IMG/VR virus record: IMGVR_UViG_3300028887_000104 | Span: 1 to 64,000 of that record | Direction: 5' to 3' (one strand) | From: a virus | Lineage: Duplodnaviria; Caudoviricetes | Length of the DNA stretch: 64,000 nt | Shown: piece after piece, positions 42,806-50,117 of the stretch | Layout: each line of letters opens with the position of its first letter | Position numbering within the stretch: position 1 is the first letter of the stretch | Program-made: the position numbers and the translations under genes | The notes under the pieces: generated by a model | Databases searched by the model: none | What the model saw: the letters and a program-made list of their open reading frames with translations, nothing else | What the model was told of the DNA's origin: nothing

Positions 42806-45800
42806 TTGGCAAGATTTGAAACATGGCTTAAATCCGATCTGAAAAATATGGTTTCCGTGACGAAACTTAGCGGAAACCTGTTTTCCGCTGACAACGGCGG
42901 GAACCTGATCGGCGTAGAAGTCATGGATGGCGGTTCCCTGGCCGTACTGGAAGGCATCGTTACGGGATACGTGATCCGCTCTGACGGCGCAACGCTGATT
43001 ATTACTGGCGAACTGGACGGAAACAAGGCATGGATTGAACTGCCTCAAAGCGCTTATGTGCATGTCGGGCAGATCAGCATTGTCATTAAGATCGGCGGTA
43101 CAACGGTTGGCGCGTGCTCCGGATATGTGTACCGGTCTACGACGGACACAATTGTTGATCCCGGGCACATCATCCCGAGCCTGGATGAACTGCTGGAAAA
43201 GATCGCAGACTGCGAAGCGGCGACTACGGCAGCGAATGAGGCAGCTAATCTTGCCAATACGAAAGCCGGACTTGCAAACGACGCCGCCACACTGGCAAAC
43301 CAGAAAGCCGAACTGGCTGACACCAAAGCAGGACTTGCAAACGACGCGGCTGCTCTGGCGAACCAGAAAGCTGAACTGGCTGACACCAAAGCAGGACTGG
43401 CAAACGATGCCGCCGCACTGGCGAACCAGAAAGCCGAACTGGCTGACACCAAAGCAGGACTTGCAAACGACGCTGCGGATCTGGCAAACACAAAAGCGGA
43501 ACTTGCAGACAGCAAAGCAACAGCGGCGAACAGCGCGGCGAACGCGGCGAATACCGCTGCCGGCAAGATTAACAACATGACCGTTGCGGCGAACGGACTT
43601 TCATCCGGATCTGACCCGACCGCGACGATCAGCGAAGTATCCGGGCATAAGCACATTCTGTTCGGTATTCCGAAGGGCGACAAGGGCGATGACGGACGCG
43701 ACTTCCACATCAAGCGCACGTTCAGCAGCATCGAAGAAATGGAAGCATACGATCCAGACGATGATCATACCATTTACAAGGTGCTGGAAAACGACTTTGT
43801 CATGATCGATACCGGAAGCGTGGAAGATCCGGATACAGGAAAGCTTTTCTGCTATGAACCGCAGACGGTTGATGTGTGGCGGTACATCGGCGATCTGTCC
43901 GGCGCACAGGGCATACAGGGGCCAGTCGGAGCAACCGGCGCACGGGGGCCGAAAGGCGATACCGGCGAACAGGGACCGACAGGAGATACAGGGCCTACCG
44001 GTGAAACCGGTCCTGTTGGCGCGACCGGCGCACAGACGTATGTGCATATCAAGTACAGCGCGAACCAACCGACGTCCGACACGGACATGAAAGACACGGC
44101 AGACAAGTGGATGGGCGTATACAGCGGACTGTCCGCGACAGCACCGACGACCTATACCAGCTATGTATGGTACAAGATCAAAGGCGAAATCGGCGATACA
44201 GGTGCCACAGGTCCAACGGGTGCCACGGGTGCCACAGGATCCAAGGGTGACACAGGCGCTACCGGACCGAAGGGGGCCACAGGCGCTACCGGTGCAACAG
44301 GCCCTGCCGGAAAGAATGCGAGTGCATTTGATATCAAAAAGTCGTACGCCAGCGTCGCAACCATGGAAGCGGATTACAATAATCCGGATCTGGCTGTCGG
44401 AGATTATGTCACGATTGCATCCGGAACGAGCGATCCTGACAACGCAAAGATCTACCGCAAAGGCAGTTCCGAGTGGGAGTTCATTGTTCAGGTATCCGGT
44501 TCGAAGGGTGATACCGGTGCCGCAGGTCCTACCGGAGCGACCGGTCCGACCGGCGCGACAGGGCCTGCTGGTGCAACAGGTCAGGCCGGACCCGCAGGAG
44601 CAACAGGTGCAACCGGACCTGCTGGTGCTACAGGTGTTGCCGGTGCGGATGGGCCAACCGGGGCGACCGGTCCTGCCGGAGTCACAGGCCCTACTGGAGC
44701 AACCGGTGCAGCTGGCACGGATGCATACGTATGGATCCGTTATGCTGCACAAGAACCGACGCAGGACAGCGATATGAAGACTACGCCGGATGAATGGATG
44801 GGCGTGTATTCCGGATCGGCTTCCACCGCGCCAACCACGTATACCAGCTATGTATGGTATAAGGTAAAGGGAGACGACGCAAGCCTTCCGAGCGTAACAT
44901 CCGCAGACAACGGAAAATTTCTCGGAGTTTCCGGCGGAAAGTGGGCGAAGACAAACGTTCCGACCATGACCGGCGCAAGCTCATCCATCGCAGGCGCGGC
45001 CGGACTGGTGCCTGCACCGGCGGCCGGAGCGAATGTATACTTCCTGAAGGGAGATGGGACATGGGCGATACCTTCAGGCGGGAAGCTGATCGTACGGGAT
45101 CTGGACACGGTAACGAACACCAGCGGAAGCTACACGCACAGCACGACCGTCAGCGATGCGGCCAGCGACATGAAGGCCGTTATGATCGAGCTGGGGGATC
45201 CGAGCGTATTCAGATCGACCATCAATATATCCGTTGGGACCGGAACGATCACGCTGAACTGTTCAGACGTAGCCGGAACGAGTACGGTAAAAGTGGGGCT
45301 GATGTTTGTGGCCGGAGCGGACGCACTGACCAGCTCGGAGTTTGATGTGCTGGCGGCGCGAATCGGAACGCTGAGCAGCCTGAAGACCACGGACAAGACG
45401 AGCTTGGTAGCTGCGACTAACGAACTGTATGACCATATTGAGAACAAAATACGGCATACCAGAAAGACAGATTTCAGCCTTTCCGACCTGCAATCGGCGG
45501 TTGTTGACCAGTGCCTTGAAAAGTACGGGCTTCATGTTGGCGACCAGAAAACCATCAATGGACGCACCTATGTTATCGCAGGTCTGAACGTGATGAAAGG
45601 TTCTCATGATTATACCTGTACAAGCAATCATGTTGGTTTGATTGTGATTCCGCATACCACCTGCAAGTGGAACGCAAGCGGAAATACCTACACAGGCGCA
45701 GACAACCGAGGCGCAGGATACAAAAACTGCGACTTGCAGTATTACCTTGCGAATACGGTTAAGGGATGGTGCGATACCGACCTTGGCTCAGGTCATCTGT

Positions 45801-46162
45801 ATCAGCATAAGAAACTATTCGGAAATGCCATCAACCAGACGGGATATAACCGCTTCGGAACGAACTCCGGTTGTACGTCTGGTTGGGAATGGGTTGATGC
45901 TTATATTTCCGCTCTTACCGAAGCGCAAGTCTTCGGTGGTGACCATTGGTCTTCTTCCGGTTATGATACGGGCGAAGCGAATACTCTGCTTCCTGTGTTT
46001 GCGGAGTTCAAGCATACAGATATCTTCGGAGACGAATATCCGTGGTTAAGGAACGTTTCATCCGCTTCGCAGGCGTGCCTTGCGAACACCGTCGGGGGTG
46101 CGTCCGGCGACTACGGCGTGAGCAAGGCCCATTGCGTGGCCGGGCTTATATTATACCATTAA
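42806..46162 (+). CDS. tail fibre / receptor-binding protein
   Basis: BppU-like N-terminus, 21-aa coiled-coil repeats, three collagen G-X-T blocks, C-terminal CLec/DUF6273-like domain (PWLRNVSS). Confidence 0.85.
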
Positions 46163-46167
46163 GAATT

Positions 46168-46188
46168 GGCAGGGGCTTGTCCCCTGCC
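46168..46188. other. GC-rich hairpin after the tail-fibre stop
   Basis: GGCAGGGG-CTTGT-CCCCTGCC. Confidence 0.8.
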
Positions 46189-46203
46189 CCAAGAGGTGAA
46201 AGT

Positions 46204-46361
46204 ATGAAGTGACAAACGAAGGAAAACGGAACCAAAGCCGGGTAGAGTTCGACAATACGTACTTCGCCGTTGATGACGATATCGAAAACCTGATAACAAC
46301 CAACTTCGGATTAAAAGGCGAAAAGCTTGGATACCGAGGCTTGGGAGACATAAATCGCTGA
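46204..46361 (+). pseudogene. truncated, frameshifted ORF resembling a DGR accessory (Avd-like) N-terminus
   Basis: RBS GAGGTG + ATG; one frame over reads VTNEGKRNQSRVEFDNTYF; family call from memory only. Confidence 0.4.
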
Positions 46362-46388
46362 AGAATGGCAATCAATAGGCGTAGTCAT

Positions 46389-48542: not shown

Positions 48543-48643
48543 ATTACCCAATATGGTCAGACATTGGTCCCTTGAAAAAAATCAGTTTAAAATGGCTAAT
48601 CAAATGCCATATGTAAAATTCAGATATGAAAGGATGATTCACA

Positions 48644-48991
48644 ATGAAATTAACAGAACTGATTGACTCAATCAATTTAGCATTACAGGTTGAAAAACAT
48701 CCAGAAAATATTGAAGTCGTTATATCAACACAATTGCCGTATGCAACGTTGGGACAGCGTCCTTGTACTGGTGTGAAGTATGTCGGAATGGGATTCGATT
48801 GGGAGTCCGGACAATTCAGAATCGCACCGGAAGAAAAGCTGATGTGCGTAAAGCATGATACGCCACAAACAGTTAAGGAATGGCGTGGGAATTATCACTG
48901 TCCGAAGTGTGAATACATGATTTCTAAAGGAAGAAAAGCAGATGCTATACGGTTTTGCTGTAAATGCGGACAGGAGGTAAAGTGGGAATGA
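48644..48991 (+). CDS. cassette ORF with C-terminal zinc ribbon
   Basis: HCPKC..FCCKCGQEVKWE. Confidence 0.7.
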   Translation: MKLTELIDSINLALQVEKHPENIEVVISTQLPYATLGQRPCTGVKYVGMGFDWESGQFRIAPEEKLMCVKHDTPQTVKEWRGNYHCPKCEYMISKGRKADAIRFCCKCGQEVKWE

Positions 48992-49069
48992 ATCTTTAAT
49001 CTCACGACCATAAATGGTCAAATACTCTCAAGGTGCTAAATGGTCAGATAATGGTCCTGAGAACCACAC

Positions 49070-49110
49070 AAAAAAACACCCCCGTCCGGAGTTAGACGGG
49101 GGTGTTTTGC
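49070..49110. terminator. bidirectional terminator
   Basis: AAAACACCCCCGTC..GACGGGGGTGTTTT. Confidence 0.85.
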
Positions 49111-49115
49111 ATCTG

Positions 49116-50117
49116 TCAGGACGCGTATTTTTTGTGACTGTTCTTGACGTCATCATCGAAGACTTTGACGTAGCGCATGGTGGTTTTGATTGACGCATGG
49201 CCCAGGAATTTCTGGACATGCTCAATGGGCATTCCGGATGCGGACGCCAGGGTTCCGGCTGTATGCCGGTATATATGCGGCGTGATTTTGTGTGTCAATC
49301 CGGACCGCAGCCAGATATTCCCTATCTCCCGCTGCAACGCCTTCTCTTTGACACCGTGTTTCTCGTGGACGCGCTTGGAGACAAACACGAATTCGCAGTC
49401 ATCATCGCGTGAATCCAGATACTTTCGAAGCGACACGAGCGCACGGGAGTTCAGATAGGTTATGCGACGCTTATCCCCTTTTCCATGACGGACAAGAACC
49501 GTACGCTTATCCCAGTCAATATCAGACAAAACCAGCGCGGCAACCTCCGCAATCCGGCATCCTGTTGAGTACAGCAGATCTACCAGCGCTACCTCACGAT
49601 CATCCCGGCAGGCCGCACGCATGATTTCCAGTTCGTCCCGGTCCATCGGTTCCCGGGCGCTCTCGTTATGCTTGATCGGATCCACATGAGCACATGGATT
49701 GGAACGGATCAGTCCCTCTCCGTGAATCCATTCGAAAAAGCTGTGCAGGATCACGCGCTTGTTGTCCAGCGTCGAGTCCACAACGCCGCTTTCCATTTTG
49801 TACCGGCCTAGGAAGCCACGGATGTCCGTCGCCGTGATCTCATCCGGACGTTTCCGGACTGTCATGAAAAACCGGCGAATAAATGAAAAGTAGTTTTTCA
49901 GCGTATCCGGATTTACATTCTGGATTGCTTTCGACGAGATATAGTACTTCAGTTCATCCGGAATTGCATTATGGACAATCAAGTCGGTTGACTGTAACTG
50001 AATCTGGTACTTTGTGGCGATTGTATCCGTGATGCCGATGATCTTCCGGACATCGTCCATATCATAGATCCGCATCAGGCCATCCGCCAGGTCAGAACGA
50101 AAAACCTCATAAGACAT
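49116..50117 (-). CDS. tyrosine recombinase (XerC/D-like)
   Basis: Catalytic set R (TGCRIAE), K (HGKGDK), HIYRH, LGH, Y (TTMRY); N-terminal core-binding domain. Confidence 0.95.
   Translation of the reverse strand: MSYEVFRSDLADGLMRIYDMDDVRKIIGITDTIATKYQIQLQSTDLIVHNAIPDELKYYISSKAIQNVNPDTLKNYFSFIRRFFMTVRKRPDEITATDIRGFLGRYKMESGVVDSTLDNKRVILHSFFEWIHGEGLIRSNPCAHVDPIKHNESAREPMDRDELEIMRAACRDDREVALVDLLYSTGCRIAEVAALVLSDIDWDKRTVLVRHGKGDKRRITYLNSRALVSLRKYLDSRDDDCEFVFVSKRVHEKHGVKEKALQREIGNIWLRSGLTHKITPHIYRHTAGTLASASGMPIEHVQKFLGHASIKTTMRYVKVFDDDVKNSHKKYAS

Follow-up and report, generated by a model that had tools for sequence, protein, structure and literature searches.

Tail-fibre shufflons driven by tyrosine recombinases are already known and are common in gut phages, and a locus that did this alone would be one more member of the class. 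The closest described system is the Rin shufflon of Bifidobacterium prophages (Mavrich et al. 2018, PMC6109161), in which a phage-encoded XerD-like enzyme without an arm-binding domain, distinct from the lysogeny integrase, flanks the locus and a short asymmetric repeat of about 11 bp marks the constant/variable junction of a fibre or receptor-binding gene. A second model is the R64/IncI shufflon (recombinase Rci, sites sfx), which is plasmid-borne, varies a pilus adhesin and has segments that hold only alternative C-termini. Here we describe a phage locus that shares features with both, in the IMG/VR virus record IMGVR_UViG_3300028887_000104, a genome of 77,726 bp rated complete by CheckV, whose first 64 kb make up the stretch analysed here (the window); the sequencing runs that hold this phage are bovine gut metagenomes. 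The locus comprises thirteen copies of a short motif and an Xer-type tyrosine recombinase, and its flanks are the last tail-fibre gene on one side and, judging from the positions of lysis genes in relatives, probably the lysis region on the other. It is a relative of the known Rin-type shufflon, and what is unusual is that its sites also bound accessory gene and RNA units. The most likely account of the whole, which we hold with slightly better than even confidence, is that of a Rin-type tail-fibre module whose sites bound accessory units of recombinase-mediated origin and exchange, so that the array would be a by-product or an extension of the shufflon.

The motif WAWATGGTCR has 12 exact matches in the 64 kb, all of them within 45430-49046; over 100 shuffles of the sequence the count averages 1.2 and peaks at 5, so that 12 is never reached. 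The remaining part of the 77.7-kb genome adds one match, at 69226, and a thirteenth copy in the cluster, AATGTGGTCA, has one mismatch. An earlier reading of this DNA from its letters alone (the original prediction) had proposed thirteen sites with a TGGTCA arm, one of them TGGTCG and one with an AATG spacer, and this census of twelve exact copies and one near copy, clustered, agrees with it. All 13 sit between a 1118-aa tail-fibre gene and the recombinase; eleven lie on the plus strand and two on the minus strand, both of the latter inside coding sequence:

45430-45439, minus strand: site S0, AATATGGTCA on the minus strand, encoding Y-D-H-I in frame where shaft and tip of the long fibre meet.
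46423-46432, plus strand: S1, type I, AATATGGTCA.
46567-46576, plus strand: S2, type I.
47020-47029, minus strand: S2', AATGTGGTCA, in frame as S-D-H-I at codons 19-22 of ORF B, in the same register as S0.
47317-47326, plus strand: S3, type I, 33 nt past the ORF B stop.
47507-47516, plus strand: S4, type II, TAAATGGTCA.
47672-47681, plus strand: S5, type II.
47991-48000, plus strand: S6, TAAATGGTCG, the TGGTCG copy, followed by an empty unit of 20 bp.
48011-48020, plus strand: S7, type II, with the left flank GGTGC.
48379-48388, plus strand: S8, type II.
48550-48559, plus strand: S9, type I, followed by the second copy of a leader.
49005-49020, plus strand: S10 (motif from 49011), left arm near-palindromic, followed by an empty unit of 26 bp.
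49037-49046, plus strand: S11, the site nearest the recombinase, with equivalents about 50-60 nt from the recombinase stop in the relatives L009 and L012.

Two subtypes can be told apart, AATATGGTCA (type I: S0, S1, S2, S3 and S9, with S2' as its AATG variant) and TAAATGGTCA (type II: S4-S8, S10 and S11), and all seven type II sites are in direct orientation. The site alignment has a conserved right side, TGGTCA and mostly then GA, and a variable left flank; S10, which had been called nearly palindromic, reads directly as CGACCA-TAAA-TGGTCA. A scan for promoters and terminators found no consensus of either kind that coincides with the motif copies. The multiplicity of the sites, their asymmetry and the combination of a conserved core and one arm with a variable other arm are as in R64 (PMC11852207), as is the placing of a site in frame in a gene with a varying C-terminus; unlike the 31-bp sfx site with its 7-bp core, the sites here measure 10-16 bp. 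The Rin site, rix, likewise combines a constant core and right side with a variable left side, but its sequence, TTCCCTAACCC, differs from that of the sites here.

The two minus-strand copies fall in two fibre genes, between which lies a third open reading frame (ORF):

42806-46162, plus strand: long tail-fibre gene, 1118 aa with collagen-like repeats, matching Pfam Collagen and PHROG tail fibre families; its constant part runs to 45429.
45440-46162, plus strand: tip A, the current C-terminal module of the long fibre, 241 aa, unrelated to the C-terminus of the L155 fibre.
46661-46960, plus strand: 99-aa ORF, a conserved backbone gene that adjoins fibre genes in relatives (39 IMG/VR loci).
46964-47284, plus strand: ORF B, a small fibre protein of 106 aa with a conserved N-terminus and a tip domain.

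The fibre of the related contig L155 is 70% identical to the long fibre over 140 residues, up to ...KTSLVAA(T/I)NE, and becomes unrelated exactly before the Y-D-H-I that S0 encodes. Assembled Logan contigs from other rumen runs (X1-X4) were matched to the window for comparison between samples, and contigs in runs X2, X3 and X4 begin or end at 45432-45435, that is at S0, while one contig of 1542 nt matches tip A and then passes into unlike sequence across S0. Taken together, these sequence boundaries indicate that the minus-strand sites are real recombination boundaries. The N-terminus of ORF B is conserved with a 134-aa ORF of L155 and resembles, by eye, ORFs of 110 aa in L012 and 124 aa in L019; its tip domain is found at the extreme C-terminus of proteins of 191-494 aa. 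An ORF B-like gene stands behind the 99-aa homologue in L155 and L019 and adjoins the recombinase in L012. The interval 46567-47317 holds two conserved backbone genes and an inverted site and is therefore not one cassette. As in Rin, the short repeat sits at the constant/variable junction, here in frame, tips measure about 85-100 aa, and direct sites coexist with inverted ones.

The same layout, an in-frame TCTGACCAnATT before the tip and an inverted copy of the TGGTCAGA core past the stop, is also present in four lineages whose recombinases are 38-65% identical to this one. In L009 (65%) TGACCAAATT precedes a tip of 94 aa, and behind the stop of this tip come GGTGCTAAATGGTCA, a terminator and, last, the recombinase. 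L012 (46%) has TCTGACCAGATTGCGA in frame, read as S-D-Q-I-A, both in a 290-aa fibre gene (codon 176) and in the 110-aa ORF B-like gene (codon 18), with an inverted GGTCAGAT past each of the two stops and a third inverted copy at a distance of 52 nt from the recombinase. Its 21 kb hold ten GGTCAGA copies, five of them within 1 kb beside the recombinase. L019 (40%) and L076 (38%) each pair an in-frame copy with an inverted copy past the stop, and in three lineages the recombinase stop has a motif copy about 50-70 nt away. Among the 39 IMG/VR loci with the 99-aa backbone gene, the sole one with the recombinase within 6 kb has five copies in mixed orientation, and the other 38 have mostly none or one. 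The claim of the original prediction that the enzyme is a tail-fibre shufflon recombinase is therefore supported by the in-frame inverted S0 at the end of the homology, by a second, armless enzyme of Xer type and by four further lineages. A side observation concerns the site past the B-like tip of L019 (8459, minus strand), where 15 nt (TTCTCAATATGGTCA) are identical to the reverse complement of window 45426-45440, a stretch that takes in S0 and flanking sequence; this may reflect either a preferred left arm or the trace of an old exchange.

The recombinase and its immediate neighbours are the following:

49073-49108: bidirectional terminator hairpin, between the array and the recombinase.
49116-50117, minus strand: Xer-type tyrosine recombinase, 333 aa, intact, convergent with the array.
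50234-50419, minus strand: basic ORF of 61 aa directly upstream of the recombinase on the same strand, matching only PHROGs of unknown function.

The only domains found in the recombinase are Pfam Phage_integrase and a SAM-like core-binding domain, and by its sequence it classes as an Xer-type enzyme without an arm-binding domain. Its closest models are XerA, XerC and XerD, below every NCBIfam cut-off, and its best relatives of solved structure are XerA and XerD. The catalytic pattern R188/K213/H281/R284/H307/Y316 is kept, and R-K-HxxR-H-Y is invariant in an alignment of 31 members; the catalytic tyrosine is residue 316 of 333, so that 17 residues follow and there is no C-terminal extension, unlike in Rci, whose extra C-terminal domain is thought to enforce inversion only. 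The proposal that an intact XerD-like gene closes the array thus holds, both in the open frame and in the catalytic residues. Some 60 metagenomic proteins equal it in length and match it at 36-65% identity, and in the contexts that were fetched the gene stands at the end of the tail/lysis block on the opposite strand. These relatives carry elsewhere a separate integrase with CI-like repressors, or a large serine recombinase, and the phage described here has a second tyrosine integrase outside the window (67353-67823, plus strand, a 393-aa open frame), presumed to be the lysogeny integrase, which would make the phage temperate. Because a separate integrase is found elsewhere in this genome and in relatives, the enzyme beside the array is an extra, dedicated recombinase, as described for Rin. 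The 61-aa ORF is possibly an accessory or regulatory protein by its position; ORFs of 54-89 aa also stand upstream of the recombinase in L012 and L013, one of them with a weak Sigma70_r4_2 match.

An Xer-type sequence could also belong to a Cre/Xer-like enzyme for dimer resolution or to a secondary integrase, the cluster of motifs having a separate cause, and homologues in L011 and L018 indeed adjoin holin genes rather than fibre genes. Dimer resolution, however, needs one site and not 13, and it does not account for a motif some 50-70 nt from the recombinase stop in three lineages with in-frame partners in fibre genes; we regard this explanation as highly improbable.

In the shufflon that we favour, a dedicated armless Xer-like recombinase would act on short asymmetric sites with the core TGGTCA(GA). 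A pair of sites in the same orientation marks the shaft/tip junctions of the long fibre and of ORF B, sites of opposite orientation stand behind the tips, and successive inversions between opposed sites could move tips between the two fibre genes. Worked out by hand for an enzyme that only inverts, an inversion between 47020 and 47317 followed by one between 45430 and 47317 would place tip B on the long fibre in frame, and a path of four inversions, likewise derived by hand, would exchange the two genes' tips and leave every segment in forward orientation. We infer that the recombinase cuts these sites and that such inversions occur. Only two tips are present, both in forward orientation, and ORF B, as the sole alternative tip, is reachable only through two inversions. 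It is in the remaining sites that the locus departs from Rin, where each inverted site precedes an alternative tip: here the 11 opposed sites bound non-fibre genes and RNAs, and the direct copies do not precede alternative tips.

These 11 direct copies bound nine units: one is a structured RNA, two are tRNA-like RNAs, four hold small ORFs, and the other two, of 20 and 26 bp, are empty. The same listing had been given from the letters alone. The contents of the units, with a leader found twice and a truncated RNA that abuts the first of these sites, are as follows:

46381-46422, plus strand: truncated tRNA-like 3' half (T arm and 3' acceptor strand), abutting S1; repeat family D2.
46433-46566, plus strand: structured RNA unit with three helices, of no Rfam family.
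46562-46666, plus strand: leader copy 1, 105 bp, from 5 nt before S2 to 6 nt into the 99-aa ORF; 97% identical to 48545-48649.
47343-47495, plus strand: cassette with a cysteine-rich ORF of 50 aa, from the ORF list; homologues 90% and 76% identical lie in other small-ORF arrays.
47517-47665, plus strand: tRNA-like RNA 1, with an acceptor-like stem, a Leu-type D arm, a T arm with the loop UGCAAAU and a variable middle.
47697-47993, plus strand: cassette with a 98-aa ORF whose TAA stop lies inside S6.
48037-48381, plus strand: cassette with a 114-aa HExxH (SprT-like) ORF whose TAA stop lies inside S8; grouped with SprT-like clusters by Atlas.
48389-48543, plus strand: tRNA-like RNA 2, of the tRNA-like family.
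48545-48649, plus strand: leader copy 2, from 5 nt ahead of the type I site S9 to 6 nt into the zinc-ribbon ORF.
48644-48991, plus strand: cassette with a 115-aa zinc-ribbon ORF, with a weak A2L_zn_ribbon match and hits to phrog_6026 and others.

Between 47020 and 49036 the GC content is 0.34-0.46 in the units that exceed 26 bp, against 0.57 in the constant part of the fibre gene. The original prediction that two ORFs use the spacer TAA as their stop is correct (47991-47993 and 48379-48381). Since the blocks that have homologues elsewhere each take in a complete 3' site, and since the ORF stops fall within it, each unit carries its site at its own 3' end, in the manner of attC in an integron cassette. 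The cargo had also been likened to the early region of phages, which applies to the HExxH (SprT-like) gene only, and even this gene, with more than 550 homologues, is located both in replication modules and in tail-lysis gaps. The 105-bp leader is, as a further observation, duplicated before two unrelated ORFs, and a second TGGTCC stands 11 nt past its site core.

Integron attC sites are folded palindromes of 57-141 bp with R''/L''/L'/R' boxes, and attI and Pc stand beside a divergent integrase. The array shares with integrons its co-oriented, compact and mostly single-gene units with a site at the 3' end, its place beside a tyrosine recombinase and a content that varies between relatives. Its sites, on the other hand, measure 10-16 bp, only S10 is near-palindromic, and a conserved GTTRRRY box is absent; the recombinase gene and the array converge on a bidirectional terminator, there is no attI, no Pc and no promoter consensus at the end of the array, the cargo includes structured RNAs, and two of the sites lie inside fibre genes. 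Nor is the enzyme of the IntI family by model scores, the integron-integrase models giving 107 bits (TIGR02249, cut-off 265) and 69 (PRK15417, cut-off 435). The locus is not an integron by membership, and of the label integron-like only the co-oriented cassette array stands, every other defining feature of integrons being absent. The pdif modules of Acinetobacter plasmids offer another parallel; these are bounded by XerC/XerD sites of 28 bp whose orientation alternates, and the enzyme that acts on them is the host XerCD. Discrete modules bounded by Xer-type sites in varied contexts are common to both, while the sites described here are short, mostly direct and beside a phage-encoded enzyme.

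Several lines of evidence suggest that units have been exchanged. One contig of run X4 (record 26) matches the window only over 46426-46576, from S1 to S2, without mismatches; one of run X3 (record 20) matches only over 47317-47516, from S3 to S4; and in run X1 the match of record 7, which has a depth of 6, is confined to the stretch from 49036, at S11, onward. Contigs of run X1 give almost no cover over about 47014-48552 of the array, a gap that is not interpretable. Homologues of the 50-aa ORF (90% and 76%) stand in other runs of small co-oriented ORFs with differing neighbours, and two IMG/VR phages, G001 and L136, have arrays of the same motif directly behind a fibre gene with other cargo: in G001 a 148-aa ORF with its TAA inside a degenerate site and then a tRNA-like RNA, in L136 an RHH gene, two small ORFs, a small hydrophobic ORF and a tRNA-like RNA. 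Fixed content and order across relatives, which the original prediction had named, together with a lack of recombination at the sites, as the outcome that would count against it, is not what we found, as arrays, contigs and the neighbours of the 50-aa ORF all differ.

For the shufflon with accessory units, we propose that the plus-strand sites would have multiplied along the gap between tail and lysis genes, where they came to bound nine low-GC units, and the most economical origin would be site-specific insertion and exchange of site-bearing DNA between related phages at the shared core, so that the units would have been moved by recombinase action. A step further, the shufflon recombinase could double as a cassette integrase, with site-bearing circles excised and inserted at the TGGTCA-core sites of other phages, a proposal that we consider possible and put forward tentatively. 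If it is true, related rumen phages would share a pool of accessory cassettes through an integron-like system on a virus, unrelated to IntI/attC. Sites and an enzyme that move genes and non-coding RNAs between phages would constitute a site-specific cassette system outside the IntI/attC family, would offer a mechanism behind the 'moron' regions of small genes that temperate gut phages carry and would be a natural pair of multi-site recombinase and site, possibly of use as a tool for DNA shuffling.

A stronger version holds that the array is an active integron-like platform, whose recombinase routinely excises unit circles and re-inserts or captures them at array sites, trafficking being its main function. 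The co-oriented and mostly single-feature units, each with a 3' site and an ORF that fills it, would fit such a platform, as would the two empty units, the low GC content, which suggests foreign origin, the differing neighbours of some units in other samples and the uniformly direct type II sites. It is opposed by a count of zero for circle or deletion junctions in the contigs and the junction scan, by the enzyme and site anatomy set out above (no IntI, no attC-like folded site, no attI or Pc, and a recombinase convergent with the array with a terminator between) and by the arrays of G001 and L136, whose contigs carry no recombinase. Moreover, the relatives that do have the recombinase (L009, L012, L019 and L076) have tips, at most one empty unit and no cargo arrays in the stretches examined. 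This version therefore seems to us rather unlikely.

A number of observations also weigh against the account that we prefer, in part against the shufflon and in part against the movement of units by its enzyme. The fibre frame, read into the minus strand to the left of the plus-strand sites, gives only 4-63 non-fibre residues (DHIGY and then a stop, DHLAP and then a stop, and so on), and 11 of the 13 sites are therefore useless for tip switching; the idea that the plus-strand sites head alternative tips on the minus strand was rejected for the same reason. The L155 homologue of ORF B is a stand-alone gene without a site, so that a coding motif, the conserved S-D-[QH]-I, could account in part for the site in ORF B. 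Neighbours of the L012-type recombinase are the same in gene size and order across the contigs seen. The cargo of all three arrays is co-oriented with the fibre gene, and such uniform orientation is unlike what an active multi-inversion system would leave. Inversion, deletion and circle junctions were looked for in the Logan contigs, which are assembled only, and none was found, the listed joints all deriving from other tRNA-like genes; a metagenome scan for AACTGTATGACCATATTGGG, the predicted inversion junction of the fibre with S1, S2 or S9, gave two unrelated chance matches only. In Rin, inversions were observed in reads and between prophages. Neither G001 (31.5 kb, CheckV 72% complete) nor L136 (14.7 kb, 43%) has a recombinase on its contig; the degenerate junction copies and the one degenerate array copy in these two fit relics, without proving it. 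Finally, a similar array occupies the same genomic position in L159-L162, with two tandem tRNA-like RNAs, a SprT-like ORF and ORFs of 41-75 aa, and the fetched loci have no Xer-like recombinase, the sole recombinase called being a 392-aa integrase in L159. The claim that the recombinase captures, excises and reorders cassettes can accordingly be upheld in part: content differs between arrays, matches running from site to site diverge and the neighbours of the 50-aa ORF vary, but no recombinant junction was found, orientation is uniform and two arrays are without a recombinase. With regard to L012 (12796-14884) and two other contigs that carry the same recombinase, a tail gene of 700 aa (weak Peptidase_S74) is called in one contig as ORFs of 338 and 347 aa, with a run of X in the translation, a split that is probably an assembly gap and not a rearrangement.

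The L159-L162 array bears on a different explanation, in which the plus-strand copies are an expression or processing signal (stop/restart, ribosome-binding-site-proximal or an endoribonuclease site) between the units of a late polycistronic transcript; the units would be exchanged through this short shared signal, as PeSL cassettes are, and the recombinase would serve only the fibre tips or something else. In L159 and L161 (5320-6950) and in L162 the array lies in the gap between fibre and endolysin, and its units are separated by WAAAGGAATCAATG, in five copies that are all direct; the stop of one ORF falls within a motif-like copy, TAAAGGAATC. A different motif on one strand, without an Xer-like recombinase, keeps open a role in expression or processing and PeSL-like exchange. 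That the 11 array copies here all lie on the coding strand agrees with such a signal, and so do the three ORFs (two here and one in G001) that stop at the TAA inside the motif, the three units here and one in L136 that start 15-16 nt past the motif behind a Shine-Dalgarno sequence, the persistence of the motif in G001 and L136 and the duplication of the 105-bp leader, which ends at a start codon and not at a site. Arbiol et al. (2010, PMC2839356) documented both shuffling and mini-circles for the PeSL mobile regulatory cassettes of T4-type phages, and as there we see a hyperplastic phage region whose small non-essential genes have a short repeat at their borders and are shuffled between relatives. 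A PeSL, however, is a strong sigma-70 promoter with a stem-loop terminator that recombines by homology, whereas the motif here is 10-12 bp without a promoter or terminator consensus and is accompanied by inverted in-frame fibre copies and a dedicated recombinase. A signal of this kind leaves unexplained both these tip-junction copies and the pairing of in-frame with inverted copies beside homologous recombinases in five lineages; 10 bp is, furthermore, very short for homologous exchange, yet the block edges are exact to the nucleotide, and the copies in G001 and L136 decay (TAAATGTTCA and the degenerate junction copies), as relic sites would. We consider this explanation unlikely.

A scan of IMG/VR with the recombinase as a single protein gave no match, and an alignment-based search was needed to recover its relatives there. 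The INPHARED phage collection gave no match to the locus by blastn or to ORF B by tblastn; a scan of GTDB genomes returned recombinase relatives at most 39% identical and no close prophage from which to assign a host. Of the patterns run against IMG/VR, GGTGCTAAATGGTCAKAT had a single match, due to chance, and the 105-bp leader had zero; the structured RNA returned the L155 contig alone; and a T arm followed by ATGGTCA returned 53 matches, about 49 of them due to chance, the real arrays being only those of L097 and L136. Candidate sites near 80 related recombinases, collected by a crude search for 9-mer repeats downstream, were rejected, as most of the words proved to be terminator hairpins or start-codon contexts, for example ACATGGCTG in L020. 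The contigs of the six closest recombinase relatives stop 10-400 bp past the recombinase stop codon. A reading of these ends as assembly breaks at a variable region was dropped, because a perfect terminator palindrome with 14-bp arms can break assemblies; it is also undercut by the ends of L152 and L153, which are not at any site.

The RNA units belong to two families, both supported by covariation and without an Rfam entry. The structured RNA at S1 has a homologue in L155 (9590-9722), in which 7 of 30 pairs are kept through changes on both sides; a loop, GUGGCAAAGGGUGAAAG, is conserved, and the L155 copy stands behind the B-like gene without flanking TGGTCA sites. The tRNA-like family has a further full member in the window:

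58286-58400, minus strand: third full tRNA-like RNA, outside the array and without a flanking site.

This copy is the recurrence of one RNA family at 58.3 kb that had been pointed out in the original prediction. Other members are found in L159 (5335-5442 and 5455-5573), L097 (156-314, minus strand), L136 (4688-4853), L126 (6893-7038, minus strand) and L020 (10618-10733, minus strand). Searches with ARAGORN and with Rfam, at gathering and relaxed thresholds, found no tRNA and no known RNA family. Its members share an acceptor-like stem (6-11 bp) and a Leu-type D arm that is nearly invariant (TGGCGGAATAGGTAGAC); their T stem of 6 bp carries the loop UGCAAAU, with G in the place of the U55 of tRNAs, and instead of an anticodon arm they have 45-110 nt of hypervariable sequence. 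Across nine sequences from six phages, 6 of the 12 predicted pairs of the acceptor, D and T stems are kept through two-sided changes. Many rumen contigs, at depths of up to 220, match only the two conserved tRNA-like arms, and these contig data suggest that the tRNA mimic is common in rumen metagenomes.

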